From: Prochlorococcus marinus str. NATL2A
Lineage (GTDB): Bacteria; Cyanobacteriota; Cyanobacteriia; PCC-6307; Cyanobiaceae
NCBI RefSeq assembly: GCF_000012465.1
Contig: NC_007335.2
Coordinates: forward strand, 1,710,001 to 1,742,000
Direction of reading: 5' to 3'
DNA: 32,000 nt
The translations under genes were made by a program, and so were the position numbers. Shown piece after piece: positions 2,094 to 27,227 of this stretch. The first letter of the stretch is position 1. Every line of letters begins with the position of its first letter. The notes beneath the pieces were generated by a model. The model saw nothing but the letters and a program-made list of their open reading frames with translations, was not told the DNA's origin and did not search any database.

Positions 2094-2840
2094 ATGGAAT
2101 CAATCAAATGTCTAAATGATGACACAATACAATTATTGTCAAAGCACAAATTACTTAAAACTCTTGTAAGGTCTGAAATAATTAAAGATGAGCTAAGTAA
2201 AATATACATAGATGAGAAGAGAAAAGAGGAGTTAATTTTAGAATTTAAAAAACAACAAAATATAATTGAAGACGATAAATATAAAAATTTCCTCAATATT
2301 AATCATCTCAATGATTATGATGTTGAGGACATCGCTCTAGGAAAAACTAGGATCTATGAATATTCTTTGAAGAATTTTGGTCACAAGATTGAATCTTGGT
2401 TTTTAGAGAGAAAAAGTCAATTAGATATAATCGTTTATAGCTTAATTAGAGTAAGTGATCCTTTTATAGCAAGAGAGCTTTACTTAAGAATACTCTCTAA
2501 AGAGACAGATATTGGTGATTTGGCTACAGAGTTTTCTGAGGGTATTGAGAAAAAAACTAGAGGTATTGTAGGTCCTATATCTATAGGCAATTCTCATCCA
2601 TCTCTTGCAAATTTTTTACAAAATTGTGAAATAGGTAAAGTACAACCACCCTTAAAAATCAATAACTCTTTTTTAATTATTAGAGTTGAGAACTTTGAGC
2701 CAGCAAAACTTGATGAAGACATGAAAAAGAATATGGGAGAAGAATTGCTTAACAAATGGCTGGACATTCAGGCAGATGATATGATAGAAAAATTAATAAA
2801 AAATCACTCCACAAAGTCAAATAATTCCATAACCTCATGA
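2094..2840 (+). CDS. PpiC/parvulin-type peptidyl-prolyl isomerase-like protein
   Basis: The C-terminal half fits a rotamase-domain pattern (ARELYLRI...DIGDLATEFSEG...GIVGPIS...LANFL...GKVQPPLKINNSFLIIRVE). Its stop overlaps the ABC gene start in ATGA (2837-2840), which implies translational coupling. Confidence 0.6.
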   Translation: MESIKCLNDDTIQLLSKHKLLKTLVRSEIIKDELSKIYIDEKRKEELILEFKKQQNIIEDDKYKNFLNINHLNDYDVEDIALGKTRIYEYSLKNFGHKIESWFLERKSQLDIIVYSLIRVSDPFIARELYLRILSKETDIGDLATEFSEGIEKKTRGIVGPISIGNSHPSLANFLQNCEIGKVQPPLKINNSFLIIRVENFEPAKLDEDMKKNMGEELLNKWLDIQADDMIEKLIKNHSTKSNNSITS

Positions 2841-5779
2841 ATGAAAATATTAATATAAGTTTAAGAGATATTGAAGGATTTAATTCAATTAGTGACTACA
2901 GTATTCAAGAGCTAAAAAATGATTTAAAGCCTATAAGATATAAACTTGGAATGCCTATTTGTGATACAAGTAATATTCCTAATAAAATAATAGTTATAGT
3001 TTCTGGCGAGGCAAGAGTTGTAAATGGGCAAATCAATAGTTGCGAATTAATTTCCAAACTAGGAGCTCAAGAATTTATTGGGCTAGCATCTCTTATCAAT
3101 GCTCGAGGTTGCGAATTAATTTCCGCAAGTACAGAACTTATAGGCTTATCATTTTCTGATAAATTAATCATCAAACTGTATAAAGAAGAAGAAAGTTTTA
3201 GAGAATGGTGCAACCAAAAAATACACCTTTCGGAAATCAATCAATTAGCCAATCATCTATATAATGATATAGCAGATTCAAATATCTCTATACAAACATT
3301 ATCAGATATTTTATCAAAAAATATTAGAGTTAAAACTTATAAAAATGATGAATTTATTTCTAATAATACAGAAATTAAAAATTATTTAATTAGTGATAAT
3401 GTTAATGATTCTACAATTTTTGATATTTTAGATCAACAAAAAATATCCACTAGAGGTCCATTTCCTGCAAGAATATTTGAATTAAATAAAGCAATTTATG
3501 CAAATATATCTAAACCTAAATCTACAAGTAAAAAGCCGTCAGAAGACAATATAAATTTAAATAAAAGCTTAAAAAGTGAAGACAAGATGCTTGATATAAG
3601 TTCAGAAAAAGTAGGTCAATACAACACAGAAAAGAACATTAAATTAATCAAAGGTCAAGGTGATCTAAGAGAGGCATTAGCTTGTTTGCAAATGCTTGCC
3701 TCAGAAATCAACTTGCCTTATCGTTCAGATTCTATTGAAAAAATTCTCCGAGATGCTTTAAATCGAGGGAAAAAGCCCAATCTTCAACTTCTTGGAGGTA
3801 TTACCTCAATAATGGGGTTGCATTCAACAATAGCTAAGGTACCTAAATCAGAAGCCAGTAGAATACCCTATCCCTCCATAATTGCTTGGAAAAATAGTTT
3901 TGCTCTTGTCAAAGAAACTAATAGTTTATTTCTAGAAATTATTTCACCAAATAAAGGTATTATCCGCTTAGATACTAATAACTTAGATGATAGTTTTAAT
4001 GACGGATTTATTGAACTACTTTTAGTTGAAAAGAATGATCAAACACCAAATATTAAATTTGGATTAAGCTGGCTTTTGCCTGCAATTAATAGGTATCGAG
4101 GAGTACTTTTACAAGTTTTGCTAGCCTCTTTTATTGCTCAACTTTTTGGGCTAGCAAACCCATTATTAATTCAAGTTGTCATTGATAAAGTTATTAGTCA
4201 GAGAAGTCTTGATACTCTTCAAATATTAGGTATCGCATTAATTGTAATCACAGTTTTAGGCGGAGTAATTAGTAGTTTAAGAACTTTTCTATTTAATGAG
4301 ACTACAAATAGAATAGACTCAAGGCTTGGTTCAGAGGTCATTGACCACCTTCTGCGCATACCCCTGGGATATTTCGATAAAAGACCAGTTGGTGAACTTG
4401 GGAGCAGAATTGCAGAACTAGAAAAAATAAGAAACTTTCTTACAGGTCAAGCCCTTACAACAATACTTGATGCTGCATTTTCAGTCATTTACATAATAAT
4501 AATGGCCCTTTACAGTTGGTTGTTAACCATAGTGGCTCTAATAGTTGTTCCAATTCAAATATTTATAACAATTATTGGTGCACCATTAATAAGAAGACAA
4601 ATAAGAGAAGTTGCTCAAAGAAACGCTAAAACCCAAAGTCATTTAGTCGAAATATTAACCGGTATACAAACCGTAAAAGCGCAAAACATAGAGAATGTCA
4701 GTCGCTGGAAGTGGCAAGAATTGTATGGAAGTTATATATCGAAGTCATTCCAAAAAACAATAACAGGTACAAGTTTAAATGAAATAAGTCAGGTTCTACA
4801 ACAAATATCTCAACTTCTTGTGTTATGGATTGGAGCAGGATTAGTACTAAATGGAAAGTTAACGTTAGGCCAACTTATCGCATTTAGAATTATATCTGGA
4901 TATGTAACTCAACCTCTTTTACGATTAAGTACAATATGGCAAAACATACAAGAACTAAAAGTCTCCTTTGAGAGATTGGCAGACATCATAGATACGCCTG
5001 AGGAATCTTCAGAAGTTGATAAAGCAAAAATTCCACTACCTAGCTTGAAAGGATTAATAGAATTTAAAAATGTAGAGTTTAAATTCAATCAAAACAGTCC
5101 TAATGTACTTAATAACATTAATCTCACAATAAAACCAGGTCAATTTGTAGGTATTGTCGGCCAAAGTGGTAGTGGAAAAAGTACACTTATGAAATTATTA
5201 CCCAGACTATATAAACCTAATGAAGGTAAAATACTAATTGATGGTTACGACATTAATAAAGTTGAACTATATTCTCTCAGGAGACAAATAGGTATTGTTC
5301 CACAAGAACCTTTATTATTTGCAGGTAATATTAGTAGCAATATATCTCTAATTGATCCAGAAGCACCCAGTGATGAGATTGTGAGAGTAGCTAAAATTTC
5401 GAATGCTCACGATTTTATTATGAGTCTTTCAGAAGGATATAGTACAGATATAGGTGAACGAGGAGCGGGATTATCTGGAGGCCAAAAACAAAGATTAGCT
5501 ATAGCAAGAACTTTATTAAGTAATCCGAAATTGTTAATACTTGATGAAGCTACAAGTGCTTTAGATTATCAGACTGAGAGAAAAGTATGTGAAGGTTTAA
5601 GAGAAGCTTGTAAAGAATCGACTGTATTTTTCATTACTCATAGATTAAACACAGTAAAAAATGCTGATGTCATCGTTATGCTTCACGATGGTTGTATTAG
5701 TGAAGTTGGTACGCATGATAAGCTAATGGAGCTTAAAGGTAGATATTTTGCTCTATATCGTCAACAGGACGCTTCATAA
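2837..5779 (+). CDS. Type I secretion ABC transporter (HlyB-like) with an N-terminal cyclic-nucleotide-binding domain and a catalytically degenerate C39-like domain
   Basis: N-terminal cNMP-binding-like fold (KIIVIVSGEARVV...FIGLASL...). A low-complexity Lys/Asn linker follows, then a C39-like segment (nt ~3650-3920) and a multi-helix TMD. The NBD has Walker A GQSGSGKST, signature LSGGQKQR, Walker B LLILDEATSALD and H-loop ITHRL. Confidence 0.9.
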   Translation: MNENINISLRDIEGFNSISDYSIQELKNDLKPIRYKLGMPICDTSNIPNKIIVIVSGEARVVNGQINSCELISKLGAQEFIGLASLINARGCELISASTELIGLSFSDKLIIKLYKEEESFREWCNQKIHLSEINQLANHLYNDIADSNISIQTLSDILSKNIRVKTYKNDEFISNNTEIKNYLISDNVNDSTIFDILDQQKISTRGPFPARIFELNKAIYANISKPKSTSKKPSEDNINLNKSLKSEDKMLDISSEKVGQYNTEKNIKLIKGQGDLREALACLQMLASEINLPYRSDSIEKILRDALNRGKKPNLQLLGGITSIMGLHSTIAKVPKSEASRIPYPSIIAWKNSFALVKETNSLFLEIISPNKGIIRLDTNNLDDSFNDGFIELLLVEKNDQTPNIKFGLSWLLPAINRYRGVLLQVLLASFIAQLFGLANPLLIQVVIDKVISQRSLDTLQILGIALIVITVLGGVISSLRTFLFNETTNRIDSRLGSEVIDHLLRIPLGYFDKRPVGELGSRIAELEKIRNFLTGQALTTILDAAFSVIYIIIMALYSWLLTIVALIVVPIQIFITIIGAPLIRRQIREVAQRNAKTQSHLVEILTGIQTVKAQNIENVSRWKWQELYGSYISKSFQKTITGTSLNEISQVLQQISQLLVLWIGAGLVLNGKLTLGQLIAFRIISGYVTQPLLRLSTIWQNIQELKVSFERLADIIDTPEESSEVDKAKIPLPSLKGLIEFKNVEFKFNQNSPNVLNNINLTIKPGQFVGIVGQSGSGKSTLMKLLPRLYKPNEGKILIDGYDINKVELYSLRRQIGIVPQEPLLFAGNISSNISLIDPEAPSDEIVRVAKISNAHDFIMSLSEGYSTDIGERGAGLSGGQKQRLAIARTLLSNPKLLILDEATSALDYQTERKVCEGLREACKESTVFFITHRLNTVKNADVIVMLHDGCISEVGTHDKLMELKGRYFALYRQQDAS

Positions 5780-5781
5780 AG

Positions 5782-6915
5782 ATGAGCAGCCTAAACAAAA
5801 AATTTTACTCATCGGTAATGAAAATAAAACACGTAGTTCCAAAATTAAAAAAAAAGTTTGGAACCCAAAAAATAATTTTTAAAAATTTTGAAATAAAAAA
5901 ATTATTAAATAATGTCGTAAACGAAAATAGATATTATAAAAAAACAAAAAAAATATTTAATGAGATAAAAATTCAAAATATTCAAGATAATATCGAAAGG
6001 TTATTCAAGAGTGATACTAATAAGATTGTATTAAAACAATCTAAATATTGGGCAAGAGCGATTACTTGGGTTCTTTTAGGAGGTACAGCATTTTCAATAG
6101 GATGGTTAGCCTTTGCCAAAACCGAGGAAATAGCAATTGTAATGGGAAATCTAGAACCGATTGGAGGAGTAGTCGATGTACAGATGCCACTTCAGGGGAT
6201 TGCACGGGAAATTCTAACCGAAGAAGGTTCTAGGGTAAAGAAAGGAGACGTTCTCATAAGGCTAGATACTGAAATAACAAAGGCACGTTTAGATTATCTT
6301 CTCGAAAATTTGAAATCTAAAAATTTAATACTTAATAAGCTAAAACAACTATTAGATGAAGGAGCTGTTTCAGAATTGCAATATCTTGAACAAAAAATCA
6401 GTGTAGAGGAACTAATGAGTGAAATAAAAGCAAATCAAGTGCAATTTAAATATCAAGAAATTAAAGCACCCATATCTGGCACAGTTTTTGATTTAAAACC
6501 TAAAAGCCCAGGATTCGTTGCCCAAACTAGTGAACCAGTACTTAAAATAGTTCCAGCCAATAATTTAATCGCAAAAGTTGAAATTGATAGTCGATCAATA
6601 GGATACATAAAAATTGGTAAAGCGGCAGACATAAGCATTGATACATTTCCTTCAACAGATTTTGGTGTAATTAAAGGAACAGTAACTAGTATTGGTTCAG
6701 ATGCATTGCCACCAGATCCATCGCAAGGTAAAGGATATAGATTTCCGGCAAAAATAAAATTAGATGAACAATTTTTAAAAGTTAAGACTGGAAAAAAGCT
6801 TGCTATTCAAGCAGGAATGGGTTTAACAGCAAATATCAAATTAAGAAAGTTAACTTATCTTCAACTACTTCTTAGTAATTTTAGTGACAAGGCCGAATCA
6901 CTAAATGCTATTTAA
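5782..6915 (+). CDS. HlyD-family membrane fusion protein (T1SS periplasmic adaptor)
   Basis: Starts 2 nt after the ABC gene stop. It has one N-terminal TM helix (ITWVLLGGTAFSIGWLAF) and a lipoyl/barrel-sandwich-like motif (VDVQMPLQGIAREILTEEGSRVKKGDVLIRLD). A coiled-coil middle and a beta-barrel C-terminus (GTVTSIGSDALPP...GMGLTANIK) follow. Confidence 0.85.
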   Translation: MSSLNKKFYSSVMKIKHVVPKLKKKFGTQKIIFKNFEIKKLLNNVVNENRYYKKTKKIFNEIKIQNIQDNIERLFKSDTNKIVLKQSKYWARAITWVLLGGTAFSIGWLAFAKTEEIAIVMGNLEPIGGVVDVQMPLQGIAREILTEEGSRVKKGDVLIRLDTEITKARLDYLLENLKSKNLILNKLKQLLDEGAVSELQYLEQKISVEELMSEIKANQVQFKYQEIKAPISGTVFDLKPKSPGFVAQTSEPVLKIVPANNLIAKVEIDSRSIGYIKIGKAADISIDTFPSTDFGVIKGTVTSIGSDALPPDPSQGKGYRFPAKIKLDEQFLKVKTGKKLAIQAGMGLTANIKLRKLTYLQLLLSNFSDKAESLNAI

Positions 6916-7268: not shown

Positions 7269-7302
7269 AAAAAAAAACCTCTGGTTTCCCAGAGGCTTTT
7301 TG
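7269..7302. terminator. Bidirectional rho-independent terminator
   Basis: An A9 run (7269-7277) precedes a perfect 7-bp stem, CCTCTGG (7278-7284) / CCAGAGG (7289-7295), with loop TTTC, followed by CTTTTT. It lies ~20 nt downstream of the TAA of the minus-strand 606-aa ORF. It is also the first strong hairpin after the plus-strand hlyD-like gene. Confidence 0.65.
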
Positions 7303-7321: not shown

Positions 7322-9142
7322 TTAGATATGGAAAATACCAGCTGCATGAGTAACAGCTACCTTAGTGATAACAGTATCATTAAGTTGGAAGAACTGGTCA
7401 TCTGAGTTATTGGTGTTAGCACCTTCAGAGAAGATGAATGAATCACCACCTGTAGTGTAAGCAACAACATCACCTGCAGCATGTGTACCAGCAGCTGCAG
7501 CAGCTAGGAACTCTAGTCCTGTAGCAGTACCTGTGTTCTTGGTGTAAACACCTTCAGCAGCACCAGTACCAACTGTGTAACCGGTAATAGTACCATCACC
7601 GTCGGTTGCGGTTCCTCCTGGAACAAGAATATTAGCCTCAGTATTTAATGCATATCCGGTAATTATTATCGGTGCACTAGCACTACCAAGGGTCTGACCT
7701 GCAGTAGCTGTGATCGACAATGAAGCTCCAGTTTGATCAATTGTCGTGATTGAAGAAGCAGTAAAGTTAGCTCCAAAAGTGGCTGTAGATGCTGCAGTCG
7801 TAAAATCGAGAATCTCAATACCGCTGATTCCTACAATGTCGGCGTCAACAATGGTTCCTTGATTTGTGATTGAGAGAATGTCACCAGTACCACCTTGACC
7901 ATCAAGAGCTGGGTTAGCAACGCTGAAGGCATCAAAAACAGCATCAGTCACTCTGAAAGTATCGTTACCTGTACCAGCATTAACTGTATCCCCACCAGCG
8001 ACTGTAATGAAGTCTGCAGCAGTACCAGCTGTAATTACGTCAATTTGTGGTGTACCAATGATGTCATTGGCCGTTGTTGGAAGTCCAGTAATTCGAGCAC
8101 CGAATGAGCCAGTAAATCCAGAGAGATCAACATACTCGAAGCCAGTAACGGTTCCAGTTGGTACTGAACCGTCTATGCTGACGATTTGATTCGTTGTCGA
8201 GGTTAAATCAACATTCAAACCACCAAGGATAGCTGCAAAATTAAGATCCAATGTATCTGTTCCGGCACCAGCTGCAATTACGTCACCAGAATTTGCCCAC
8301 ATAAATGTGTCATTACCATCTGAACCTGTATATGTGGCAGCAGCAGTTGAAGATCTTGTAGTCGTCTGTAGAACAGAACCACCTACTCCCATGCCAGATG
8401 CATCAATTACTGTTACATCTTCTGCAGTAGAAATAATTTCAACATCATTTGTACCAGTTAAATTGACCGCCATGGTAGCTCCAGTTGCAGTCATAGACAA
8501 GCCACTAAGGTCCAAGTCAACTTGAAGAGCTGTTTCTGGCTTGATAACAAGTGTTTCAACGTCAGCCATTGTGATCTTCAAATCATCATTTGCGGATGCT
8601 GCTGAAACATTAACTGTTTGAGATTCAGTACCACTGACAGTTGCCAACTTAATTTCTAGTTCTGAAGCAGTACCGTCAGTAGTCGTGTAATCAACCGTGA
8701 CACCAGAAGCCAAACTAGATAGTTCAAGTTTTTCGGATGAAATATCAACGACATTTATCTGAGACAAGCCTGAAGCCTTAGACATATCCAAAACGTACTC
8801 AGTACCATGATCAGCCAAACTTATATCGAAGTTTTCAATACCTGTCATGTTTGGAGTAACGCTAGCATCTGTCGCAGCATCATAGGAAGCTGAAACTGTG
8901 TCTGTATTTGCAGTACCTACAACAGAAATTGTTGTAGCAGCCTCACCATCATCGAAATCATTTAAGCCAAAGGTTAAGTCAGTAATGACTCCTGAATAAC
9001 CTGAGAAATCAAATACAGCACTATTAGTTGCAGTTAAAGTATCAGATGCATTTATACGGAATGAAGACAATGCATTACCACCTGTAACGTTGACTGCTGT
9101 AGCAGCGTTCAAACCGTTAGCAGCATTACCATCTGAATCCAT
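7322..9142 (-). CDS. C-terminal 606-aa segment of the giant Thr/Gly/Ala/Asp-rich repeat surface protein (candidate T1SS substrate)
   Basis: ATG at 9142. Isolated RTX-like nonapeptides are present (AGAGTDTLD, GTGNDTFRV, SDGNDTFMW). The module grammar matches the upstream ORF. I spotted no Cys and no signal peptide. It is in the same frame as 9155..12268. Confidence 0.7.
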   Translation of the reverse strand: MDSDGNAANGLNAATAVNVTGGNALSSFRINASDTLTATNSAVFDFSGYSGVITDLTFGLNDFDDGEAATTISVVGTANTDTVSASYDAATDASVTPNMTGIENFDISLADHGTEYVLDMSKASGLSQINVVDISSEKLELSSLASGVTVDYTTTDGTASELEIKLATVSGTESQTVNVSAASANDDLKITMADVETLVIKPETALQVDLDLSGLSMTATGATMAVNLTGTNDVEIISTAEDVTVIDASGMGVGGSVLQTTTRSSTAAATYTGSDGNDTFMWANSGDVIAAGAGTDTLDLNFAAILGGLNVDLTSTTNQIVSIDGSVPTGTVTGFEYVDLSGFTGSFGARITGLPTTANDIIGTPQIDVITAGTAADFITVAGGDTVNAGTGNDTFRVTDAVFDAFSVANPALDGQGGTGDILSITNQGTIVDADIVGISGIEILDFTTAASTATFGANFTASSITTIDQTGASLSITATAGQTLGSASAPIIITGYALNTEANILVPGGTATDGDGTITGYTVGTGAAEGVYTKNTGTATGLEFLAAAAAGTHAAGDVVAYTTGGDSFIFSEGANTNNSDDQFFQLNDTVITKVAVTHAAGIFHI

Positions 9143-9154
9143 TGATACATCAGC

Positions 9155-9157
9155 CTA
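9155..9157 (-). other. In-frame TAG separating the two halves of the giant repeat-protein reading frame
   Basis: The minus strand reads ...ATT ATC TCA GGT TAG GCT GAT GTA TCA ATG GAT TCA GAT.... 12268-7322+1 = 4947 = 3 x 1649, so both ORFs and the 12-nt spacer share one frame. Confidence 0.9.
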
Positions 9158-12100
9158 ACCTGAGATAATCAGGTTAATAGTGTCAACATCTGAGACATTA
9201 TCAGTGATCGCATCTCCATCACCAAGGGTAAGGTTAAGAACATCAGTTCCTCCATTACCGTTGACAGTGATATCGGCATTAGTGGTTTCTCCGATAGTGA
9301 AGGTGTCATTTTTAGATGAACCAGTAATGTTATGAGCTCTGTCACCTTTAAGGTCAAAGGTAGTAGCTATAGCAGTACCTGCAGTAGCAGTTAGTATTCC
9401 AAAATAACCAGTCGCATCAACAGCTGTTGTATCAGTATCAAGAGTATTAAGCGTCATTGTCTGTCCAGCATCAGCAGCTGAACCGACTACAACAATCTTT
9501 GCTGCATTAAGTGAGTCAACATCAAGACTTGTGTTGGCATTTGAGGTGTCAGTGTCGTCAGTGACGTCAAATGTAACTGTCTCAATTCCAGTTGCTTTTA
9601 CTTCAATAGTGTTTGTATTTGGAGTAGTTCCATCTGTGTCATTCAGGTTGAACGTAAGTGAATCTGAAGTTCCAGAGGAATCAGCAAGACTGATATCGAA
9701 TAAACCATCTACATCACCATCGGTATTGTTGAGACCTGCTCCAACTTTTACTCCAGCAGCCAGATTAGTGATTGTTGTTGAAGTTGTGTTTGTTGTAACA
9801 GCAATTTCACTGGCTCCAGTAACTTTGGAAGCGTCAAAAACAAATACTCCGCCATTAGTTAGGTTCAGAGTTTCTACATTAGAGACATTTAGAGCACCGG
9901 TCGTAGCAGTTAAACCCGTTACAGTTGCAGAAAGTGTATCTGTGCCTGCTCCTCCATCAACGGTGTCTGCATTGTTTAGATTAGAACCGAAGACTAATGA
10001 ATCAGCACCTGAACCAGTAGTAATCGTTTGATTAGCAGCTACTCCATCGAGTTGCAAGTCTCCAGTAAAAGTAGAAGCATCAACAGTGACAAGTTTTGAA
10101 GCAGTTATTGTGCCATCAATATCAAGAGAAGAGTCACCAGTGATCTTCAAAGTAGTCAGGGCGTTTGTACCACCGTCAGTAAGAGTAGATACTACATAAT
10201 CAACTGTGTTAGCTGATAAGCCTGAGGTATTAATAGTAAGTGTCTCAATGTCACCAGCTGAAATTTGCTCAATTGTTTGTGTTAAAGCCTTGTCACCAGA
10301 TGGTGAAGTTAGGTTTACGGTTAGCGAATCTGCAGTTCCTGATGGATCTTTCAAAGAAGCAGTTACTTGAGCCCCTGAACTAATTTCTACAGTTTGATCA
10401 GTTAAATTTGTGAATGAAACGTTTGAGTATCCAACTTCTGCAACAGCAATATTACCGGTACCAGTAATACTGTCGAAATTGATTGTGTCTCCGGTGTCAG
10501 ATGTTCTGGTAATAAAAACACCATCACCTGTTCCGTCTACGTCGACAGCTGTGGCAGTAAATCCTGTCAAGGCGTTGATAGATGCAGCTAGTTCAGCAGC
10601 AACTTCAGCGTCAGTATTGGTGCCCGTAGCGGAAGCAATTGATGTTGATACACCGTTTAGAGAGTATGAATAATCATCGCCAGCTGCGTTCAAAGAACCT
10701 GTCACATGAACTGTTTTTGTGTGCCCAGCTGCTTTTAGAGTTGTAAATGAACCAACTCCATCTGCATTAACTACAGCCGAATCGTTAGTTGGATTGACTT
10801 CTAAAACCTCAACGTTACTTACATTTGCGAATGTTGTACTTGTAAGGGTGGCATTACCCAAATCCAAGCTTAAAGTATCTGTTCCGGCGCCTCCATCAAC
10901 AACATCAGCACTTGTAAAGCCAGTAGAAAACTCAACGAAATCATCACCTGATCCACCAGTTACTGAAGCTATATCTCCTGTATTGAGCTGTATAGAAAGG
11001 TTACCGGTGAATGCAGATGCATCTACAGTTCCATCAATAGCTGTTGTTGTGGCATTGTCTGCAAAATCTACATCACCAACGATTTGAAGATTCGCAGAGC
11101 CAGTTACGTTTAATGCTGTAGCGTTATCGATTACGACATCAGTCAACTGACTTTGAGTCAGAGTTGAGTTGATTGTCAAAGTTTCGATAGAAGCTGCTGT
11201 GAAGGTACCGCCAGAAAGATTACTCACATCAAGAGTAATTGCGTCACTTGAGCCAGATACAGCAGTTGAAGTATGAGTAAGGGTTAAGTCAGCCGCACCA
11301 TTTCTCAACTCTGCATTTGTCAACACAGTCATTCCTTGGAAAACAGTGTCTCCATCAGATCCAGAAGAACTCAAACCAACTGTTGAAGGTGCACCGAGCA
11401 GAGTTGTATCTACGGTTGTAACACCAGTAGGTCCATCAAAGTTAGTTAGTAAAACCTTTTCAATGCCAGTTGCTTGAACACCGCTAAGAGTTGTAGCTGC
11501 ATCACCAGAAACAGCGATGTTTAAAGTATCTACACCTGATCCACCATCAATTACGTCACCAGCTTGGATGGTCGTACCAGTAGCACCGCCAACAATAACT
11601 CCATTAATCTTGTCGTTACCAGCACCACCAGTGACTGAATCCTGATTAGTTGTGAGAGTTAATGTCTTAGATGCAGTAGCAGTTGTTGGCACCCCATTTG
11701 AAGTAATGGTTGCGACACTTGCAGCTATACCTGCAGCAGTTGAAGCTGTATCTTTATCTATTGTTGATAGATAATTTCTTGCAGCGATGATGTTGTTACC
11801 AGCAGCAAAAGTAGAATCAGCTGCTAGACCATCATTTAGAGGCTGATAAGAAAGTATTCCAGCTGTAGTCTCTTTAATTTTGGCTGTATAAGCTACTGCT
11901 GCTTCAGTTCTATTACTTAAGGCTGCTTTATCATCTGCGCTTCCAGAATTATTTTGAGCAGCCCAAATAAGATCATTTGCAATCTCAGCTAATTGCAAAT
12001 TACCTAAACGAATTTGCTGAGACCAATAAGTCAAGCCAGCTACATCGGCATCTCTATCGAATAGATTTTTATAAATCTGGTTTACTTGTGACTCGATGGA

Positions 12101-12268
12101 GAGAGTTCCGTACTCGCTTGTGAATTCGGGCTGAGCATACATATTTGCTGCAAATGCCGCGGTAGTGATCCCTCTTTCCGTCCAGTAATCAAGACCAGTG
12201 GGATCCGCAGCGCGTCCGAAGTAAGCAACGTATAGCTCTTGAAGTTGGGTACTAGTCGCGTTGGTCAT
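9155..12268 (-). CDS. N-terminal 1037-aa segment of the giant repeat surface protein; N-terminal DUF4214 repeats followed by repeat modules with GGxGxDxL calcium-binding-type nonapeptides
   Basis: ATG at 12268. DUF4214-like LQELYVAYFGRAADPTGLDYW and QIYKNLFDRDADVAGLTYW. RTX-like GGAGNDKIN, GGSGVDTLN, GGSGDDFVE, GGAGTDTLS (twice) and GNGGTDVLN. No signal peptide, and I spotted no Cys. C/G-ending codons (ACC AAC GCG TAC TTC CGC CCC) are unlike the neighbouring genes. Confidence 0.75.
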   Translation of the reverse strand: MTNATSTQLQELYVAYFGRAADPTGLDYWTERGITTAAFAANMYAQPEFTSEYGTLSIESQVNQIYKNLFDRDADVAGLTYWSQQIRLGNLQLAEIANDLIWAAQNNSGSADDKAALSNRTEAAVAYTAKIKETTAGILSYQPLNDGLAADSTFAAGNNIIAARNYLSTIDKDTASTAAGIAASVATITSNGVPTTATASKTLTLTTNQDSVTGGAGNDKINGVIVGGATGTTIQAGDVIDGGSGVDTLNIAVSGDAATTLSGVQATGIEKVLLTNFDGPTGVTTVDTTLLGAPSTVGLSSSGSDGDTVFQGMTVLTNAELRNGAADLTLTHTSTAVSGSSDAITLDVSNLSGGTFTAASIETLTINSTLTQSQLTDVVIDNATALNVTGSANLQIVGDVDFADNATTTAIDGTVDASAFTGNLSIQLNTGDIASVTGGSGDDFVEFSTGFTSADVVDGGAGTDTLSLDLGNATLTSTTFANVSNVEVLEVNPTNDSAVVNADGVGSFTTLKAAGHTKTVHVTGSLNAAGDDYSYSLNGVSTSIASATGTNTDAEVAAELAASINALTGFTATAVDVDGTGDGVFITRTSDTGDTINFDSITGTGNIAVAEVGYSNVSFTNLTDQTVEISSGAQVTASLKDPSGTADSLTVNLTSPSGDKALTQTIEQISAGDIETLTINTSGLSANTVDYVVSTLTDGGTNALTTLKITGDSSLDIDGTITASKLVTVDASTFTGDLQLDGVAANQTITTGSGADSLVFGSNLNNADTVDGGAGTDTLSATVTGLTATTGALNVSNVETLNLTNGGVFVFDASKVTGASEIAVTTNTTSTTITNLAAGVKVGAGLNNTDGDVDGLFDISLADSSGTSDSLTFNLNDTDGTTPNTNTIEVKATGIETVTFDVTDDTDTSNANTSLDVDSLNAAKIVVVGSAADAGQTMTLNTLDTDTTAVDATGYFGILTATAGTAIATTFDLKGDRAHNITGSSKNDTFTIGETTNADITVNGNGGTDVLNLTLGDGDAITDNVSDVDTINLIISG

Positions 12269-12855: not shown

Positions 12856-13800
12856 TTGAAAAGTAAAACCGCCGTTGTTCTGGGATGCAAAGGACAAGAT
12901 GGTTCTTTGATGTGCAGATCGCTTTTGGAAAAAAATTACAAGGTAATCGGATTAATTCGTGGAGAATTAAAAGATGAGAGCAATCTTCACAAGCTCGACA
13001 TAAAAAATAAAATAAAAATTGAAACAGGAGACATAAAAGATTTTCAGATCATAAGTAACTTGATTGAAAAATATCAGCCGGATTGCGTGTACAACCTTGC
13101 TGCTCAGTCATCCGTGGGTCAGTCGTTCCAGAATCCAAAAGAAACAATAGATTCAATTGTAAATGGAACGATGAATATTTTAAACGTATGCAAAATTATC
13201 AATTACACCGGAAGAATTTTTTTTGCTGGTAGTAGCGAAATGTTTGGAAATATCGAAAGCAAGGCTAATATTGATCACCCACAACAACCAAATTCACCAT
13301 ACGCTATCGCTAAACAAACAAGCTTCAATCTGGTAAAAATGTACAGAGAGATATATGCATTAAAATGTACAACTGGGATTTTGTTTAATCATGAATCAAA
13401 TTTAAGACCAGAAACATTCGTAACACAAAAAATTATAAAAACTGCTCAAGAGATCAAAAAATATAAAAAAAAGAAATTAATAATTGGCAATATTGATATA
13501 ATAAGGGATTGGGGTTGGGCTCCGGAATACATCAATGCTATTCAGTTGATATCTAATTCTAATTTAATTAAAGATCACATAGTATGCACCGGTAAGGCAA
13601 CAAGTTTAAAAACTTTTATTCAAAAAGTTTTTGCCAAGCTTGATTTAGATTGGGAAGAGTTCACTGTAGTGAATAAAAATTTATTTAGAGCTTCTGATAT
13701 AAAAAGAAGTTGTGGAGATCCTACACCACTTTTTGAAGAATTAGGGTGGAAGTCCAAGGTTAATTTCGATTCAGTAATTGAGAGAATGCTTAATCAATGA
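12856..13800 (+). CDS. Short GDP-mannose 4,6-dehydratase-family SDR (gmd paralogue)
   Basis: TTG start, which is required to retain the Rossmann motif VVLGCKGQDGS. SSEMFG, SPYAIAKQ (YxxxK), FNHESNLRPETFVTQKI and RDWGWAPEY parallel the FNHES.RRGETFVTRKI / RDWGHAKDY motifs of GMD. Confidence 0.75.
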   Translation: MKSKTAVVLGCKGQDGSLMCRSLLEKNYKVIGLIRGELKDESNLHKLDIKNKIKIETGDIKDFQIISNLIEKYQPDCVYNLAAQSSVGQSFQNPKETIDSIVNGTMNILNVCKIINYTGRIFFAGSSEMFGNIESKANIDHPQQPNSPYAIAKQTSFNLVKMYREIYALKCTTGILFNHESNLRPETFVTQKIIKTAQEIKKYKKKKLIIGNIDIIRDWGWAPEYINAIQLISNSNLIKDHIVCTGKATSLKTFIQKVFAKLDLDWEEFTVVNKNLFRASDIKRSCGDPTPLFEELGWKSKVNFDSVIERMLNQ

Positions 13801-13823
13801 GTTAAGTCAAATTGTAATCATAG

Positions 13824-16800
13824 CTATTCATTAATTTCTAGACTATTAATCATATTAAATAAACGAAATCCCAGTCTAGAAAACTTAAAATTATTAATAA
13901 ATTTTTGTTTATTATATTGTAGAATTTCAGCTTCTTTTTTATTTTTTGATCTCTTGATCCAATTAATAATTCCATTGGCAATTTCATCAGAAGTAAACCC
14001 AGGTAGGTATTCAATGCAATCAGAAATATCATTAAATATTGGATTGGGAGTAACTAAAGTTGGTTTTAAAGCCGCTAATGCTTGTCTCACTGAAGCGCTT
14101 GAAGATTCGTTGGTATGTTGATAAGGAAAAACAATCAAATCTTGCGAAGACAAATTTTTTACAGTTTGTTCATCGGCCATATATTCAGTGTTTATGTTAA
14201 CTATATCTCTAATATTCAACTTATGAACTAAATCTACCAACTCATTGTAAACATAAGTAAAGGAATCATTATAGATTGCCGTAAACAAATTTAATTCTAA
14301 ATATATGTTTCTATCAGATAAAATTTTGACTGCCTTAATCAATTCATTGAAACCCTTATTAGGCAAACAAAAACCATATGAAGCTATTCTTAATTTATGT
14401 TTATGACTAAATAAGTTGGCTCTAGAAAAGTCTTTAGATAATTCATGATTAATGGGAACATATTTTATGCCATGCGGAAATAAACTTACATTTTCCTTCA
14501 GGCCTAAAAGCTTTAAGCGATTCAGATCTGTTAATGTATGGACTAATATTCTGCTACATTTAAATAGAGAAGGAATTAAGTTCTCTATACGTTTTTTATT
14601 ATTCCCAATTGGATCAAGAGTCGAATGCATAAATAAGATTATATTGATTTTATGTGATGAAACTTTATCTATGAAACTAGATAATTCAGAGAAATTAAAA
14701 AATCCATAATTAAATTGTATTACTAAAGAAGTTATCTGGGCATTAATAACGTCATTAAATAATTGATTTAAATCTTGCGATATATCATTATCTAATTCCC
14801 AACACTGAATTGTTTCGTAAGTTGTACTAATTTTTTGTGATGAAATTGGAGTAAATATTGTTACTCTTGAGAAAATATTATCTATTAAATTTTTTGAGTA
14901 AGATGCAATACCACATCTAGTTCCCCAGGATGTAATCCATCCTATACGTGGATGAATACTTTGCATATTATTCAAAATATTTTGTGAAAAATCTAGATTC
15001 TTAAGTGCCACATTTTTCCAGGTAAATTTTTCAATATCTGATTTAGCTTTAGAAATTTTAGACCTTAAACTTAACTTATTTGAATGAAATAATTCTTTCA
15101 TAAGTTCCGACAAGTGAGAACAAGATGGCTCTGCCCAATAAGACATGCCTAAATCAAAATGTGTTTTTGCTGATAAAAACTCATAATCAATTAGCCAGCT
15201 ATTTTCATGATTACAGAAATCAGTTTGACCTCCCCAAGCTGTAGTTATAACAGGCAAATCTAGAAACATTGCCTCAGCTATGGGTAAACCAAATCCTTCT
15301 CCCCGGCTTGGTGCTACTAATGCATCTGAGCTAAAATATAATGCTTTTAACTGTGAATCACTTAAATCCTCGTTGATAATCATTACATCTGGATATTTAG
15401 AATTTATAGATTTCTCCTTCTTTAGGATTTGATCTACATTATTATGGGAATTCTTGAATGTTTTTATAATTAAAGTAACGTCATCATAAGAATTAAAAGC
15501 CTGGCCATAAGCTCTTAATAAGATATCAATTCCTTTACGTGGAAAGCATGAAGATACGTGGAGAAACCTAAATTTATTGGAGTTTAGCGAAAAATTCCTA
15601 TCACTTTCTAAATCCTCTAAATGATCTATACCAAGGCCACAAACACTAATGGGAATTCGCACGCCATTATCTATTAAAATCTTTTTTACTTGAGAAGACA
15701 TTACTGAAACACCCTGCAAATAAGTATTAAATTCAACAACCCATTCCTGAGGAAATTCAGATTCCTCCCATCCATATGAGTGAAGAAGATTTATTATTGA
15801 TTGCAAGTCCGCTACTCGCGGAGGATATAAATTTCTGCTAGATACTATTGAAGATTCAGTCGATTCCAAAGATTGTTTATATAGTTTATATATAGAAGGA
15901 TATTGCTTAATAAATTTGATATTAGGAACATAATCACCAGGTCCCTCCGTATTATGTATCGTTACATTTTCTATGATTTTAGTAAGAGATTGAACAAAAG
16001 ATCTATTTAAAATTGCGAGGCTATAATTTGAATCAAATGGACCTTCCACTCTCCAAGAAAAGGGAGAATCTAAAGGAATCAAAGAACGTGATATAAAGTC
16101 TGTTTCTAAATTGACTAAATCAATTGAAGATGCAATTTGGTCTGCGAGATTTTGACTTAAATTAGCCTGAAGGTTCTTATCATTTTTTATTTTACTTAAT
16201 AAAATATTATAGCTATTATTATTTTTATAATTTATATATTCCCAATTACAATTAGAATAATCTTTCGGATTGTCATTAATAATATTTTCACAAGCTTCTA
16301 AGACTTTTCTACTGGTGTCGAACCAAGAAAATTTCTGTGCTTGGTAACTTGCGTTTTTTATTAAAGAATTTCTAAAAACAATATCAGTTAACGCTTTCTG
16401 AATAAGATTCTTAATAGAATCAGTGTCATATGGGTCAAACATTGCATTCGCATCGCCAATAATTTCTGGAATACTTGTACAGTTTGATGCTATTGAAGGA
16501 GCTCCACATGACATTGCCTCTAGAATAGGCAGACCGAAACCCTCATGGAAAGATGGAAAAACAAATAAAGCGCAGTTTTGATATAAATAAACTAAATCTT
16601 TATCTGAAACATAGCCTAAAAGAATTACACTTTTTTTATTGATAGAGAACTCTTTTATCCAACCATGAATTAAATCAGTTTCTGAAGGTAATAACTTTCC
16701 AGAAAAAACAAGTTTGTATTTTAAGAGAACCTCAAAAGGAAGTTTTGAATATGCCTTTAACAAACCTTTAATATTTTTTCTAGGATCGCTTGCCCCAGAA

Positions 16801-17483
16801 TATAAAATATAATGATCAAGGGTATCTAAAACACTGTGTGTTGATTTATCAGTCTCAACTTTCTTTATATTAAATATATCCCTATTACAAGCAGAGGAAA
16901 TATTATAAACTTTATCTTCCGCATAACCTAAATACTTAATTGCTTCATTTTTAGATGATTTCGAAATAGAAAGTAATCCATCTAATGTTTTTAACTTATC
17001 AATTTTATTTAAATAAAATTCTTTAAAAGCTGGATTAGAATTTAAGTATAGATCTGGATGTAATAACGGAATTAAATCATAGAAGATCGATAATACTGGG
17101 GCTGCAAGAATATCGTTATCAAATTCTGTAAAGCAATTGTCTGTATACCCTTCAAAAAAACTAGTTAAAAGAATAACATCAGGAAAAACACGATTGAATG
17201 TATATGATCTTAAATATCTTGCAATATTTAAAGCATTATCATTTTTAGAAATATAATCTAGAGGTGCTAAAGAATACCAATTTATATAATTAATATTACT
17301 CCGACTTAGGTACTTTCTAAAATCAGAACTAATATCTAAAAGACAAGCATTTCCAATCAGAACATATTCATTCTCTGGAAAATTATCTAAAATATTCGAG
17401 ATTATTTCATAAGAATATCTTCCTATACCTCTTTTTCTACTTCCTAAACTTTGAACACCTGAAAGGTCAATAGCAATTCGCAT
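13824..17483 (-). CDS. Three-domain GT4-family glycosyltransferase (1219 aa)
   Basis: Two clear GT4 EX7E-type motifs (EGFGLPILEAMSCGAPSIASNCTSIPEIIG and GEGFGLPIAEAMFLDLPVITTAWGGQTDF). A third GT-B-like C-terminal domain follows (RIGWITSWGTRCGIASY...NESSSASVRQALAALKPTLVT). Confidence 0.85.
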   Translation of the reverse strand: MRIAIDLSGVQSLGSRKRGIGRYSYEIISNILDNFPENEYVLIGNACLLDISSDFRKYLSRSNINYINWYSLAPLDYISKNDNALNIARYLRSYTFNRVFPDVILLTSFFEGYTDNCFTEFDNDILAAPVLSIFYDLIPLLHPDLYLNSNPAFKEFYLNKIDKLKTLDGLLSISKSSKNEAIKYLGYAEDKVYNISSACNRDIFNIKKVETDKSTHSVLDTLDHYILYSGASDPRKNIKGLLKAYSKLPFEVLLKYKLVFSGKLLPSETDLIHGWIKEFSINKKSVILLGYVSDKDLVYLYQNCALFVFPSFHEGFGLPILEAMSCGAPSIASNCTSIPEIIGDANAMFDPYDTDSIKNLIQKALTDIVFRNSLIKNASYQAQKFSWFDTSRKVLEACENIINDNPKDYSNCNWEYINYKNNNSYNILLSKIKNDKNLQANLSQNLADQIASSIDLVNLETDFISRSLIPLDSPFSWRVEGPFDSNYSLAILNRSFVQSLTKIIENVTIHNTEGPGDYVPNIKFIKQYPSIYKLYKQSLESTESSIVSSRNLYPPRVADLQSIINLLHSYGWEESEFPQEWVVEFNTYLQGVSVMSSQVKKILIDNGVRIPISVCGLGIDHLEDLESDRNFSLNSNKFRFLHVSSCFPRKGIDILLRAYGQAFNSYDDVTLIIKTFKNSHNNVDQILKKEKSINSKYPDVMIINEDLSDSQLKALYFSSDALVAPSRGEGFGLPIAEAMFLDLPVITTAWGGQTDFCNHENSWLIDYEFLSAKTHFDLGMSYWAEPSCSHLSELMKELFHSNKLSLRSKISKAKSDIEKFTWKNVALKNLDFSQNILNNMQSIHPRIGWITSWGTRCGIASYSKNLIDNIFSRVTIFTPISSQKISTTYETIQCWELDNDISQDLNQLFNDVINAQITSLVIQFNYGFFNFSELSSFIDKVSSHKINIILFMHSTLDPIGNNKKRIENLIPSLFKCSRILVHTLTDLNRLKLLGLKENVSLFPHGIKYVPINHELSKDFSRANLFSHKHKLRIASYGFCLPNKGFNELIKAVKILSDRNIYLELNLFTAIYNDSFTYVYNELVDLVHKLNIRDIVNINTEYMADEQTVKNLSSQDLIVFPYQHTNESSSASVRQALAALKPTLVTPNPIFNDISDCIEYLPGFTSDEIANGIINWIKRSKNKKEAEILQYNKQKFINNFKFSRLGFRLFNMINSLEINE

Positions 17484-17487
17484 TCTA

Positions 17488-18741
17488 TTAATCCATAAAA
17501 TTTTTGAATAAAGATCTAGATATTTTTTGTGAACGTTTAGATAGTTGATGATGTAACATTAGAAATTTATTAAAATCTTCAGAACTTTTATCTAAAATCT
17601 TATATTTAGCTAAATTAGCTTGATTTTTATTTAAATATTTAGAGAAAGAACCAAAAAGGAATTTGTCGTTCAAAAAATACAAAATTTTATGGATTTTATT
17701 TGAAAAAATAATTTTTTTTATAAAATTATTTTTAATTATTTTATTAAATAATTTAAAAAATAATAAACTGAAATATTTTTTTAATTTAAATAGTATCTTA
17801 TAAAATGGATATAAAATCTTCCGTATAATTCGATAAATTTTAAGGATATACTTTAAATCATTTTTTAAGATATTAACTTCATTATTTAAGAGTTCAAAAG
17901 CGTTCAGTTGATTACTTAAGGAATTTTTTAAAGACGTAATCTCTGTTTGACTAGAAGCATTAATATTTTCTAATTCTAATAGAATTTTCTCATTTCTTAA
18001 ATCAAAATCGACACAAGCATCCATAGTCTTAGGTGCTTGATTTAGCTTTTGCTGCCAATCAATATCTTCAGAAAAAATTAGTTGAGATTTCGATACATTT
18101 TTTGTCGCGACTATCAACAGATCCTGCGCAACACCGTTTAGAATTCTTGTGATTTTAGAATGGTTTTCATTCTTCATAGGACCACCATTAATATAAAAAT
18201 CACTAACTGTTTCAAACCCTATACTTTTCATAGAGAATTTGATTGCTTCAGGATTAATATGAGAAATATGTGTTTGGTCTAAATAAAAAGTATTAGTTGA
18301 TACAATTAAATTATCAATACTAGGTGTTTCAATTATAAAAACACCGTCCTCGCTAAGAACTCTATAACATTCGGAAAGTATTTTAAAAGATTGCTTATAA
18401 TTTATATGCTCAATCATATGAAACATTGTTAATATTGACACAGAATTAGTTGATAATGTTGGCAGAATATCTAATGCATCCCCATCAATAATATTTAAAC
18501 CCTTTTCCGTACATAAAGATATCATCTCTTGGTCATTTTCTATGCCAAAGCAATTCTCTATTTTGTTACTCCATTTTTGAACCCACTCACCTCTTCCAGA
18601 TCCTATATCTATTAATTTTGGTTTTTCAATATCTTTAATAATCAAATCAATTAAAAAATCATACTTTGAGAATTGGGATAAAATTGATTCAGTATCTCCT
18701 CGAAATTTATTCTCAAAGTCTAAATAAAAATTAGATGTCAT
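17488..18741 (-). CDS. Class I SAM-dependent methyltransferase fused to a coiled-coil segment and a basic amphipathic C-terminal tail
   Basis: Motif I LIDIGSGRGEW. Coiled-coil-like LELENINASSQTEITSLKNSLSNQLNAFELLNNEVNILKNDLKYI. Lys/Phe/Ile-rich tail (RKILYPFYKILFKLKKYFSLLFFKLFNKIIKNNFIKKIIF). Only 4 nt separate it from the downstream GT gene. Confidence 0.8.
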   Translation of the reverse strand: MTSNFYLDFENKFRGDTESILSQFSKYDFLIDLIIKDIEKPKLIDIGSGRGEWVQKWSNKIENCFGIENDQEMISLCTEKGLNIIDGDALDILPTLSTNSVSILTMFHMIEHINYKQSFKILSECYRVLSEDGVFIIETPSIDNLIVSTNTFYLDQTHISHINPEAIKFSMKSIGFETVSDFYINGGPMKNENHSKITRILNGVAQDLLIVATKNVSKSQLIFSEDIDWQQKLNQAPKTMDACVDFDLRNEKILLELENINASSQTEITSLKNSLSNQLNAFELLNNEVNILKNDLKYILKIYRIIRKILYPFYKILFKLKKYFSLLFFKLFNKIIKNNFIKKIIFSNKIHKILYFLNDKFLFGSFSKYLNKNQANLAKYKILDKSSEDFNKFLMLHHQLSKRSQKISRSLFKNFMD

Positions 18742-19030
18742 AATTTTAATCTTTAGTTTTTTGATCTGACCAATATATAATACTATCTCTGGAAATACAG
18801 AATAAAAAGTCTATCATTTTTTCTTCCGCTAATCAATCATCAATCAATCAATTATAACTACTAATTATTTATTATACTAATGCAGGCTTAATAAATATGT
18901 ATGAAATTTTTTTTATATTATTATTAAATGTTTTATTTTACAACTTAATAGATGCAAAATGTTACAATAAAATTTAAAATTAAAAAGTTGTTTTCGCCCC
19001 AACTCGATAAAATAGATTTAATCTTCAAAA

Positions 19031-19501
19031 GTGAAGCCAATAATCCTCATCAAACATTTAAACGGAGCTCCAGGTCTCAGACTCTTTGGACTTGGACCAA
19101 AGTGCATTCCGGTAAATGCAATTGATCAACTTAAAAATTTACTTGAAAATCAAAGTTTCTGGGCAAAAGGTCGAAAAAAAAATGAAATAAAAAAAATGAT
19201 TAAAAATAGCAGTTGTGTTATCACTTTGTGGCAAAAAAATAGATTAATAGGTTTTGGTCGAGCAACAAGTGACTATATTTATCGAGCAGTTTTATGGGAT
19301 ATTGTCATTGTTAAAGATCAACAAAATAGTGGGCTCGGTAAATTATTAGTCAATTCACTCTTATCATCAAAATCAATTAAAAAAGTTGAAAAAATTTATC
19401 TGATGACAACAAATTCGCAAGATTTCTATAAAACCTGTCAATTTGAAGAGATCAATACGCAATCATTACTAGTCTATAAATATATTGATCAACAAAATTA
19501 A
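19031..19501 (+). CDS. GNAT-family N-acetyltransferase
   Basis: GTG start. The acetyl-CoA-binding-type motif VIVKDQQNSGLGKLLVNSLL (Q/RxxGxG/A pattern) follows a beta-strand core (IGFGRATSDYIYRAVLWDI). Confidence 0.7.
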   Translation: MKPIILIKHLNGAPGLRLFGLGPKCIPVNAIDQLKNLLENQSFWAKGRKKNEIKKMIKNSSCVITLWQKNRLIGFGRATSDYIYRAVLWDIVIVKDQQNSGLGKLLVNSLLSSKSIKKVEKIYLMTTNSQDFYKTCQFEEINTQSLLVYKYIDQQN

Positions 19502-19518
19502 ATATAAAATTAATAGAA

Positions 19519-21771: not shown

Positions 21772-22124
21772 TTTTAGCCTGAACCGTTAATCAATTATTA
21801 GAAGACACATGCTAATAAAAGTTCAACAATCACCTCAAGAATATTTTGAAATTAAAGATTGAATCAGAACTGCCTTATTTAGGTAACTTTTAATACTTTA
21901 GCAGCACCTCATCAGTCTTCCGTCTAAAGGAGGAAAAGAAGTTTTACCAGAAGGGGAAGAGATGAGAAATAACCAAACGCGTCTATTTGCGACATGTCTG
22001 GACTAATTACTTCCCTTTGAAGGGATACAATCACCCTGCTTAATTAAAGGGCAAGATCATTTCAAAGCAAACCCTCAATACAAGGTATAATTCTCACTAA
22101 TAGATCCTTTGCAAAATAAATAAT

Positions 22125-24854: not shown

Positions 24855-25015
24855 TTTTAGCCTGAACCGTTAATCAATTGCCAGTAAATTTAAAGTAAAT
24901 AATAGTTAATTATTTTATCTCAATATATCTTACAAATAAATATCAAATATCAACTGATTTCTTGAACTATATTTGAATATTTAATTTAATAACAACATAC
25001 AAAGTTTCATAATAC

Positions 25016-25843: not shown

Positions 25844-25847
25844 ATTC

Positions 25848-26816: not shown

Positions 26817-27100
26817 TATGAAACTATTTTACTGAGATTATAGTCATAAAATAGCTGCTGTCTATGATAACTTTTAACTCAATAGAAGTATAATAATTAT
26901 ATAAATTAAAATTAATAATAAAAGTATTTAGCATTTGCTTTGCCAGACAGGATGACTTTATGTTTTAAATTTAATCACGAAAAAAAATATTAAATTCATT
27001 AAATTATAAATACAGTTATCCTATTACATTTAAAGTTTATAACTTAAAAATTATATTACAAAACATAAAAAATATTCAACTATATAATACTTATGATTAA

Positions 27101-27156
27101 ATTTATCTTGATCTGGTAAAAAAATAATTTTAGCCTGAACCGTTAATAAATTATTA
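27101..27156 (+). repeat. Orphan copy of the last 27 nt plus the 3' flank of the TPR-GT41 genes (gene remnant / recombination scar)
   Basis: 27101-27147 (atttatcttgatctggtaaaaaaataattttagcctgaaccgttaat) is identical to 21745-21791 and 24828-24874. With one mismatch it continues to 27156, matching the copy-1 flank (caattatta). It lies between two minus-strand sugar genes. Confidence 0.85.
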
Positions 27157-27227
27157 TCAATAGTGAGCATTTTATAATAATTTTCGTTTTAGAAGCTTAA
27201 AAAATTTATATATAAATCACTATAAAT

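Follow-up and report, generated by a model that had tools for sequence, protein, structure and literature searches.

ABC exporters that carry a C39-fold domain are known in active and inactive forms, and both bear on the gene examined here, at positions 2837–5779 (+) of a 32,000-nucleotide (nt) stretch of Prochlorococcus marinus str. NATL2A (contig NC_007335.2, positions 1,710,001–1,742,000; hereafter the window). Exporters with an inactive C39-like domain (CLD), such as HlyB, pair with large RTX (repeats-in-toxin) cargo whose C-terminal signal is not cleaved off, the unfolded substrate being tethered by the CLD; active C39 domains pair with small peptides that have a double-glycine (GG) leader (PMC8277102). 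In the CLD of HlyB, a conserved Trp77 stacks on His83 (PMC8277102). PCAT1, ComA and LahT (4RY2/6V9Z, 3K8U, 6MPZ) have an active Gln/Cys/His/Asp tetrad, small GG-leader cargo and no cyclic-nucleotide-binding (CNB) domain. In Nostoc PCC 7120, the proposed role of HetC is to process a small signalling peptide and carry it out of the cell; the HetC protease is active (Cys347/His420) and no membrane-fusion gene is adjacent (PMC10986499). The cyclic-nucleotide-monophosphate (cNMP) domain of HetC is needed in vivo and binds ppGpp (Kd 59 µM), GTP and GDP in vitro, and it neither responds to nor is stabilised by cAMP or 2-oxoglutarate (PMC10986499). Large surface proteins provide a further precedent in cyanobacteria: in Synechocystis, the S-layer protein leaves the cell through a type I secretion system (T1SS) of Sll1180, Sll1181 and Slr1270 (PMC11594277), and both Sll1951 and, in Synechococcus WH8102, SwmA (S-layer/motility) are described as RTX proteins, SwmA being apparently glycosylated (PMC11594277, PMC3034196).

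We analysed gene structure, folds, residue substitutions, family conservation and cassette synteny in the window, which has a GC content of 31.7%. The intact open reading frame (ORF) at 2837–5779 encodes a 980-amino-acid (aa) ABC exporter of the HlyB class. We consider it fairly likely, taking the proposal as a whole, that this protein serves as the ABC subunit, in the inner membrane, of a HlyB-class T1SS, with a dead peptidase domain and an added CNB-type module that most likely senses neither cAMP nor cGMP. HetC shares the layout, with a cNMP-type domain followed by a long linker, a C39-fold domain, a transmembrane domain (TMD) and a nucleotide-binding domain (NBD), and is the only characterised relative and the sole experimental precedent for the CNB-like module. 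It differs from the NATL2A protein in its active protease, whereas here the corresponding residues are Glu279 and Ser354, the genes for HlyD-family and PpiC-like proteins are coupled to the exporter gene, and large RTX-like proteins are encoded nearby.

The C-terminal part of the protein follows the order C39-like domain, type IV TMD and NBD seen in E. coli HlyB/HlyD/TolC (3ZUA, 7SGR/8DCK). The type IV ABC exporter TMD (residues 427–694; positions 4115–4918, +) was matched by Pfam ABC_membrane at 181 bits and the NBD (positions 5108–5776, +) by ABC_tran at 122 bits over residues 758–907. All ATPase motifs are intact, including Walker A (GQSGSGKST), the signature (LSGGQKQR), Walker B with its catalytic Glu (LLILDEATSALD) and the H-loop (FITHRL), and on this evidence the gene looks functional. 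The top NCBIfam model is TIGR01846 (type_I_sec_HlyB; 706.0 bits, residues 281–977, just below the model's cutoff), and the best match of the whole protein in the PDB is HlyB (7sgr/8dck; 536 bits compared with 367 bits for PCAT1), with E. coli HlyB aligning at 40% identity across residues 280–979. An initial reading of the DNA letters and translated ORFs, the sequence-only reading, had placed a T1SS ABC transporter at these positions, and the ORF, both Pfam domains and the structural match agree with it.

The CLD (residues ~262–400; positions 3620–4036, +) was recognised by Pfam Peptidase_C39 (27.7 bits, cutoff 22, residues 280–391). Its two diagnostic motifs, LREALACLQML (nt 3665–3697, residues 277–287) and KNSFALV (nt 3890–3910, residues 352–358), lie within a few bases of where the sequence-only reading had put them. 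Relatives were gathered by an exhaustive profile search, which returned 182 representatives at E ≤ 1e-30 and was far richer than a word-indexed homologue search with the N-terminus (9 matches). A family profile built from 29 CLD sequences was then compared with experimental structures. In its alignment to the peptidase domain of PCAT1 (7n87; E 3e-4), the catalytic Cys21 corresponds to Glu279, His99 to Ser354, Asp115 to Ser370 and the oxyanion Gln15 to Gly273. In a separate hhalign alignment to HlyB residues 1–152 (a query 100% identical to 7sgr), Glu279 falls on HlyB Tyr9, which we take to be the residue standing in for the catalytic Cys in the HlyB CLD, and KFGLSWLLP at the junction of the domain and the TMD pairs with HlyB KFDFTWFIP. 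The His region is offset by one residue in this alignment; the segment AWKNSFALVKE contains no His in any register, and the loss of the His is therefore independent of gap placement. The fold itself is well supported: an AlphaFold model of residues 255–420 (mean predicted local distance difference test, pLDDT, 85.6) matches LahT 6mpz (TM-score 0.77, root-mean-square deviation 2.5 Å), PCAT1, the HlyB CLD 3zua and ComA.

Loss of the active site is not peculiar to NATL2A. Across the family, position 279 is Glu in 73, Ala in 11, Gly in 6, Ser in 5 and never Cys, which is absent from all ~80 scorable relatives; position 354 is Ser in 38, Gly in 21 and His in 3; and no family member has the full Gln/Cys/His/Asp tetrad. 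Distant members, comprising the plasmid-borne and Gloeocapsa relatives, also have dead catalytic sites. Degeneracy of the CLD is confirmed and is a trait of the family. Because all four positions of the tetrad are substituted (Gly/Glu/Ser/Ser here), the C39-fold domain, judged by its sequence, cannot cleave peptides. The substitutions of Cys by Glu and of His by Ser had both been called correctly by eye, the alignments revealed no conserved Cys/His pair, and Gln and Asp proved to be lost as well. What had been described as the HlyB-type situation holds in that a T1SS exporter carries an inactive C39-like domain and that the catalytic Cys is replaced in both proteins (Tyr9 in HlyB, Glu279 here), but HlyB keeps His83 and its Asp where the NATL2A protein has Ser354 and Ser370, so that by sequence the CLD is more degenerate than that of HlyB. 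A Trp stands just before the His position in both (W351 here, W77 in HlyB; PMC8277102), Trp351 being conserved in 63 of 84 family members, and Cys283 is also kept in the NATL2A domain. These data extend the known range of CLD degeneration to a case in which the tetrad is wholly lost and the CLD-typical Trp is retained.

The exporter gene is the second in a three-gene cassette. The first gene (positions 2094–2840, +) encodes a PpiC/parvulin-like protein of 248 aa (Pfam Rotamase 29 bits, cutoff 21.7) that has no signal peptide, and its stop codon overlaps the start codon of the ABC gene (ATGA). The third (positions 5782–6915, +) encodes a HlyD-family membrane-fusion, or periplasmic adaptor, protein of 377 aa (Pfam HlyD_3 62.5 bits) and starts 2 nt past the ABC stop. 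The adjacent HlyD gene, the KFxxxWxxP junction and the neighbouring cargo-like proteins with RTX-type motifs are common to this locus and the HlyB system; the HlyB system has no PpiC-like partner, and an acyltransferase of the HlyC type is absent here. In every related locus, a HlyD orthologue follows the ABC gene, and PpiC-like homologues (33–38% identity) lie directly upstream of it in loci L001–L007, with further PpiC-like homologues upstream of the ABC gene in Nostoc 7120 pCC7120alpha, L. boryana and locus L074.

The complete cassette recurs in Synechococcus WH 5701, CS-1330 and ELA057, a Cyanobium metagenome-assembled genome (MAG) and Prochlorococcus AG-363-P01, and close relatives of the ABC protein carry Prochlorococcus names in public records. 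It was also found in two MAGs labelled Sphingobacterium and Pelagibacter: ‘Sphingobacterium thalpophilum’ (L002; 63.7% GC) and ‘Candidatus Pelagibacter’ MED605 (L005; 33% GC), the latter with the gene order of the window. As all other close relatives found are picocyanobacterial, both contigs are probably mis-binned. Cyanobacterial plasmids carry the cassette too. On Nostoc PCC 7120 pCC7120alpha, where it spans record positions 344401–349727, the order is peptidylprolyl isomerase, peptidase domain-containing ABC transporter and HlyD, and in Leptolyngbya (L. boryana) the ABC gene is annotated as a ‘cyclic nucleotide-regulated ABC bacteriocin/lantibiotic exporter’. In Gloeocapsa PCC 7428 the ABC and HlyD genes are also present, and their upstream neighbour encodes a hypothetical protein in divergent orientation. 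Upstream of the NATL2A cassette, an ORF of 60 aa (positions 1832–2014, +; MANVTIDGKEYDVDSLSKEAKEQL...) is coiled-coil-like; public assemblies list it as a gene, and it shares 52% identity with the ORF at the same position in L005 (8730–8909). Its sole Pfam match, DUF6447, is sub-threshold, and it may encode an accessory protein or a fourth component of the cassette. A promoter scan was uninformative (43 sites compared with 48.7 expected).

HlyB has neither a CNB-like nor a middle domain, and the NATL2A protein exceeds it by ~260 N-terminal residues. A single-sequence phmmer search of residues 1–412 against the PDB returned nothing significant, and family profiles were therefore needed. Using a 25-sequence profile of residues 1–150, we obtained matches to PKG, PKA-R and CRP-family structures (E 3e-16 to ~1e-6), and an AlphaFold model of residues 1–420 (pLDDT 86.9; predicted TM-score 0.77) had PKA-R and PKG as its top Foldseek matches (E 2e-11). 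These results place a CNB fold at residues ~10–145 (positions 2864–3271, +). For the protein's own sequence, the Pfam cNMP_binding score (PF00027) is 14.7 bits against a cutoff of 27.5 (E 0.031, residues 34–92), which is passed by five of the six picocyanobacterial orthologues (24–39 bits). The cNMP-binding fold claimed by the sequence-only reading is thus upheld by the family profile, the structural model and the orthologues, even though the sequence on its own gives no significant cNMP-binding match, the outcome that this reading had named as refuting it.

The phosphate-binding cassette of this domain (FIGLASLINARGCELISAS, nt 3074–3130) is degenerate, with Leu83 in place of Glu and Cys92 in place of Arg (G82-L83 ... 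G91-C92-E93). CRP, PKA-R and PKG share the beta-barrel and helical fold; their Gly-Glu and Arg-Ser/Thr-Ala cassette contacts are gone here and a conserved Cys-Glu pair is found instead. Position 83 is Leu in 88, Ile in 12 and Trp in 11 of ~120 family members, with Glu in one, and position 92 is Cys in 101 of 123 and never Arg among the listed residues. Position 91 is Gly or Pro, followed by Cys92 and a near-invariant Glu93. The register of the cassette is ambiguous by one residue, and no Arg or Glu occurs at any candidate position. The cassette region is the most conserved stretch of the domain (G82, S85, C92, E93 and A97), and conserved positions of the domain include Cys92-Glu93, Arg60 and Cys125. 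Lacking the Glu and Arg that bind cyclic nucleotides, the module is, as far as sequence can tell, most likely no sensor of cAMP or cGMP. That both N-terminal domains are degenerate and that the layout is common across cyanobacteria likewise suggest that the exporter is probably not switched by cAMP or cGMP.

Between the CNB fold and the CLD lie a beta-rich middle domain (residues ~152–225; positions 3290–3511, +; AlphaFold pLDDT ~90–95) and a low-complexity, disordered linker (residues ~229–260; positions 3521–3616, +; pLDDT < 50 at residues 229–248) that varies in length and sequence between homologues. An invariant Arg212 sits within a TRGPxPARI motif in the middle domain. Foldseek alignments of the residue 1–420 model to tandem-CNB proteins cover ~240–250 columns, and the middle domain may, on the model, be a second, truncated CNB-like barrel. 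When residues 152–225 were compared with the CNB profile using hhalign, only the overlapping helix was paired, and a profile search of the PDB returned nothing, leaving the domain with no detectable sequence relatives.

The main rival to a regulatory input other than a cyclic nucleotide is that the CNB-like and middle domains form a ligand-free scaffold for protein–protein contacts (with the PpiC-like partner, the cargo or the NBD by packing), secretion being constitutive or transcriptionally controlled. The loss of the canonical ligand contacts is in keeping with a scaffold, as is the strict coupling of the PpiC-like gene to the cassette from Prochlorococcus to Nostoc, and the charged invariant residues (R60, E93, E133 and R212) could form salt bridges. 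However, the equivalent domain of HetC binds nucleotides in vitro (PMC10986499), and best conservation in the cassette region is typical of a retained pocket; we regard a pure scaffold as unlikely.

Still less probable is that the N-terminal domain is a true cAMP/cGMP receptor gating the pump, which was the mechanism put forward in the sequence-only reading. The CNB fold is genuine, orthologues clear the Pfam cutoff and a paralogue is named in GenBank a ‘cyclic nucleotide-regulated ABC bacteriocin/lantibiotic exporter’, but this name reflects automated transfer rather than a test, the protein's own Pfam score is sub-threshold, and in nearly all ~120 members the cassette Glu is Leu, Ile or Trp and the Arg is Cys, with neither Arg nor Glu available in any plausible alternative register. 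Since the HetC domain is not stabilised by cAMP (PMC10986499) and the cassette residues are missing family-wide, gating by cAMP or cGMP is improbable and this part of the earlier proposal is not supported. Its companion statement, that such an input to T1SS lacks a characterised mechanism, has in part been overtaken by the HetC study (PMC10986499). Finally, that the protein cleaves and exports small GG-leader peptides through non-canonical catalytic residues is very hard to credit: although Peptidase_C39 scores above its cutoff and relatives go by ‘peptidase domain-containing ABC transporter’ or ‘peptidase C39’ at NCBI, the tetrad is substituted at all four positions, no relative has the nucleophile Cys, no small GG-leader ORF was found beside the cassette (the 60-aa ORF being the only small one) and the TMD and NBD are nearer HlyB than PCAT1.

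The neighbouring genes offer candidates for a larger cargo. Convergent to the cassette, two ORFs rich in Thr, Ser, Gly, Asp and Ala span positions 7322–12268 (−): one of 1037 aa (9155–12268) with an N-terminal DUF4214 domain and six GxGxDxU motifs, and one of 606 aa (7322–9142) with three. They share one reading frame, which a lone TAA interrupts at 9155–9157 (...INLIISG-stop-ADVSMDSDG...), and their homologue in L005 is a single ORF of 1452 aa. By sequence, the two look like one RTX-like surface protein of ~1650 aa broken by a stop, which could be a pseudogene mutation, a strain polymorphism or a sequencing error. This DUF4214 protein is the likely cargo within the window. Type I C-terminal secretion signals are not recognisable by sequence. 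A perfect hairpin with a 13-bp stem flanked by A- and T-runs (positions 7272–7301) lies between the convergent HlyD and cargo genes and is likely a bidirectional intrinsic terminator.

Upstream of the cassette, a metzincin-like protease (positions 561–1739, +; HEIGHTLGLSHP) that has two DUF4214 repeats at its C-terminus and lacks a signal peptide is possibly a second cargo, and its orthologue occupies the equivalent place in L005. More broadly, GxGxDxU proteins adjoin the cassette in the window and in five of the six related loci scanned. At the divergent locus L076, a TolC-like outer-membrane efflux protein, a PpiC-like gene, the ABC gene and a membrane-fusion protein occur together with a serralysin-type protease that has Pfam-positive RTX repeats (HemolysinCabind). 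This locus (GCA_902624165.1, 27.7% GC) is also adjoined by type IV pilin and prepilin-peptidase genes. Of the large neighbouring proteins, earlier suggested as cargo, the 1037/606-aa pair with its GxGxDxU motifs is a candidate, but the 1219-aa ORF at 13824–17483 is not, and we rejected it as cargo on identifying it as a GT4 glycosyltransferase. A gmd fragment at 92–505 is no pseudogene, its ORF being cut off where the window begins on the left.

The remainder of the window (12856–31987) is a surface-glycan island. It encodes enzymes of the GDP-mannose-dehydratase family, the 1219-aa double GT4 glycosyltransferase, a methyltransferase, a GNAT protein and two paralogous TPR plus GT41 (O-GlcNAc-transferase-like) proteins at 19519–21771 and 22125–24854, as well as a nucleotidyl transferase, dehydratase/epimerase-family enzymes and an RmlD-family reductase that resemble genes of the dTDP-rhamnose pathway. 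Given this island and the Thr/Ser-rich candidate cargo, the secreted protein may be glycosylated, by analogy with what has been reported for SwmA. The Sll1180 system and SwmA are a cyanobacterial case of large surface-protein export, and the window likewise pairs a T1SS with a Thr/Ser-rich RTX-like protein and a glycosylation island. Sll1180, a protein of roughly 1000 aa, may belong to the same family.

From these data we infer the identity of the cargo, the docking role of the CLD, and the ligand and regulatory role of the CNB module. Under this model, the PpiC-like, ABC and HlyD genes would be co-transcribed and translationally coupled, the PpiC-like protein would be cytoplasmic and a TolC-like outer-membrane partner would be encoded elsewhere. 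By the rule that links CLD exporters to RTX cargo (PMC8277102), and given the locus context, the system is best read as a T1SS of the HlyB class that serves large proteins of the surface or the secretome. The CLD would act, as inferred from HlyB, as a cytoplasmic docking or tethering site for unfolded, large RTX-like cargo with an uncleaved C-terminal signal, namely the adjacent 1037+606-aa DUF4214 protein and possibly the upstream metzincin. The CNB-fold module would be a conserved regulatory appendage common to other cyanobacterial exporters, coupling export to a different cue, for which a guanine nucleotide (ppGpp or GTP) is the most plausible candidate after the HetC results in vitro; the middle domain and the PpiC-like partner may act with it. 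A more specific version is possible, if rather doubtful: the CNB/dead-CLD exporter with its PpiC-like and HlyD partners would constitute an undescribed, cyanobacteria-wide T1SS sub-type in which a repurposed pocket (Cys92-Glu93, Arg60 and Cys125) senses ppGpp/GTP or a thiol/redox cue and licenses export, while a dedicated, cytoplasmic parvulin-like chaperone passes surface proteins that are Thr/Ser-rich and possibly glycosylated on to the dead peptidase domain.

Several observations weigh against assigning a HlyB-class, non-cyclic-nucleotide-regulated T1SS to this locus. Both NCBIfam family models fall short of their cutoffs, TIGR01846 for the exporter (cutoff 725.55) and TIGR01843 for the HlyD protein (143.6 bits, cutoff 208.65), and no TolC-like gene lies within the 32,000-nt window. 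The candidate cargo carries an in-frame stop and may therefore be a pseudogene in NATL2A, the Pfam HemolysinCabind match to the 1037-aa ORF is sub-threshold (17.9 compared with 23 bits) and its GxGxDxU motifs are scattered rather than arranged as tandem nonapeptides. The analogy to ppGpp comes from a single study in vitro, and the paralogue studied there has an active peptidase. The strong conservation seen at Cys92-Glu93, Arg60 and Cys125 might just as well mark a protein interface as a ligand site. Lastly, we found no experiments on the 2837–5779 protein or on any family member whose CLD is dead.

Much of the architecture is already familiar. The domain architecture is in public annotation, and CLDs in T1SS and cNMP domains on cyanobacterial C39-ABC exporters are known separately. 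Our literature searches found no paper that joins a fully dead CLD, lost cNMP contacts and a conserved PpiC-like partner, and returned nothing for SYNW0193, for type I secretion with cyclic nucleotide, C39-like domain and HlyB together, or for PpiC with HlyD in cyanobacteria. Overall, our verdict is that the NATL2A protein is a real and largely ordinary cyanobacterial variant of the HlyB-type T1SS. The practical yield is partly negative, in that ppGpp/GTP, the Cys-Glu pocket and the PpiC-like partner are better leads than cAMP or cGMP.

T1SS are usually seen as constitutive conduits with transcription as their only control, and a sensor-type domain fused to the pump is a direct route to post-translational gating. 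Prochlorococcus and Synechococcus, in which this exporter family is abundant, are the ocean's most numerous phototrophs, and the secreted surface proteins of marine picocyanobacteria shape grazing, phage adsorption and motility. If the sub-type proposed above were real, it would mean metabolite-gated, post-translational control of type I secretion in these organisms.

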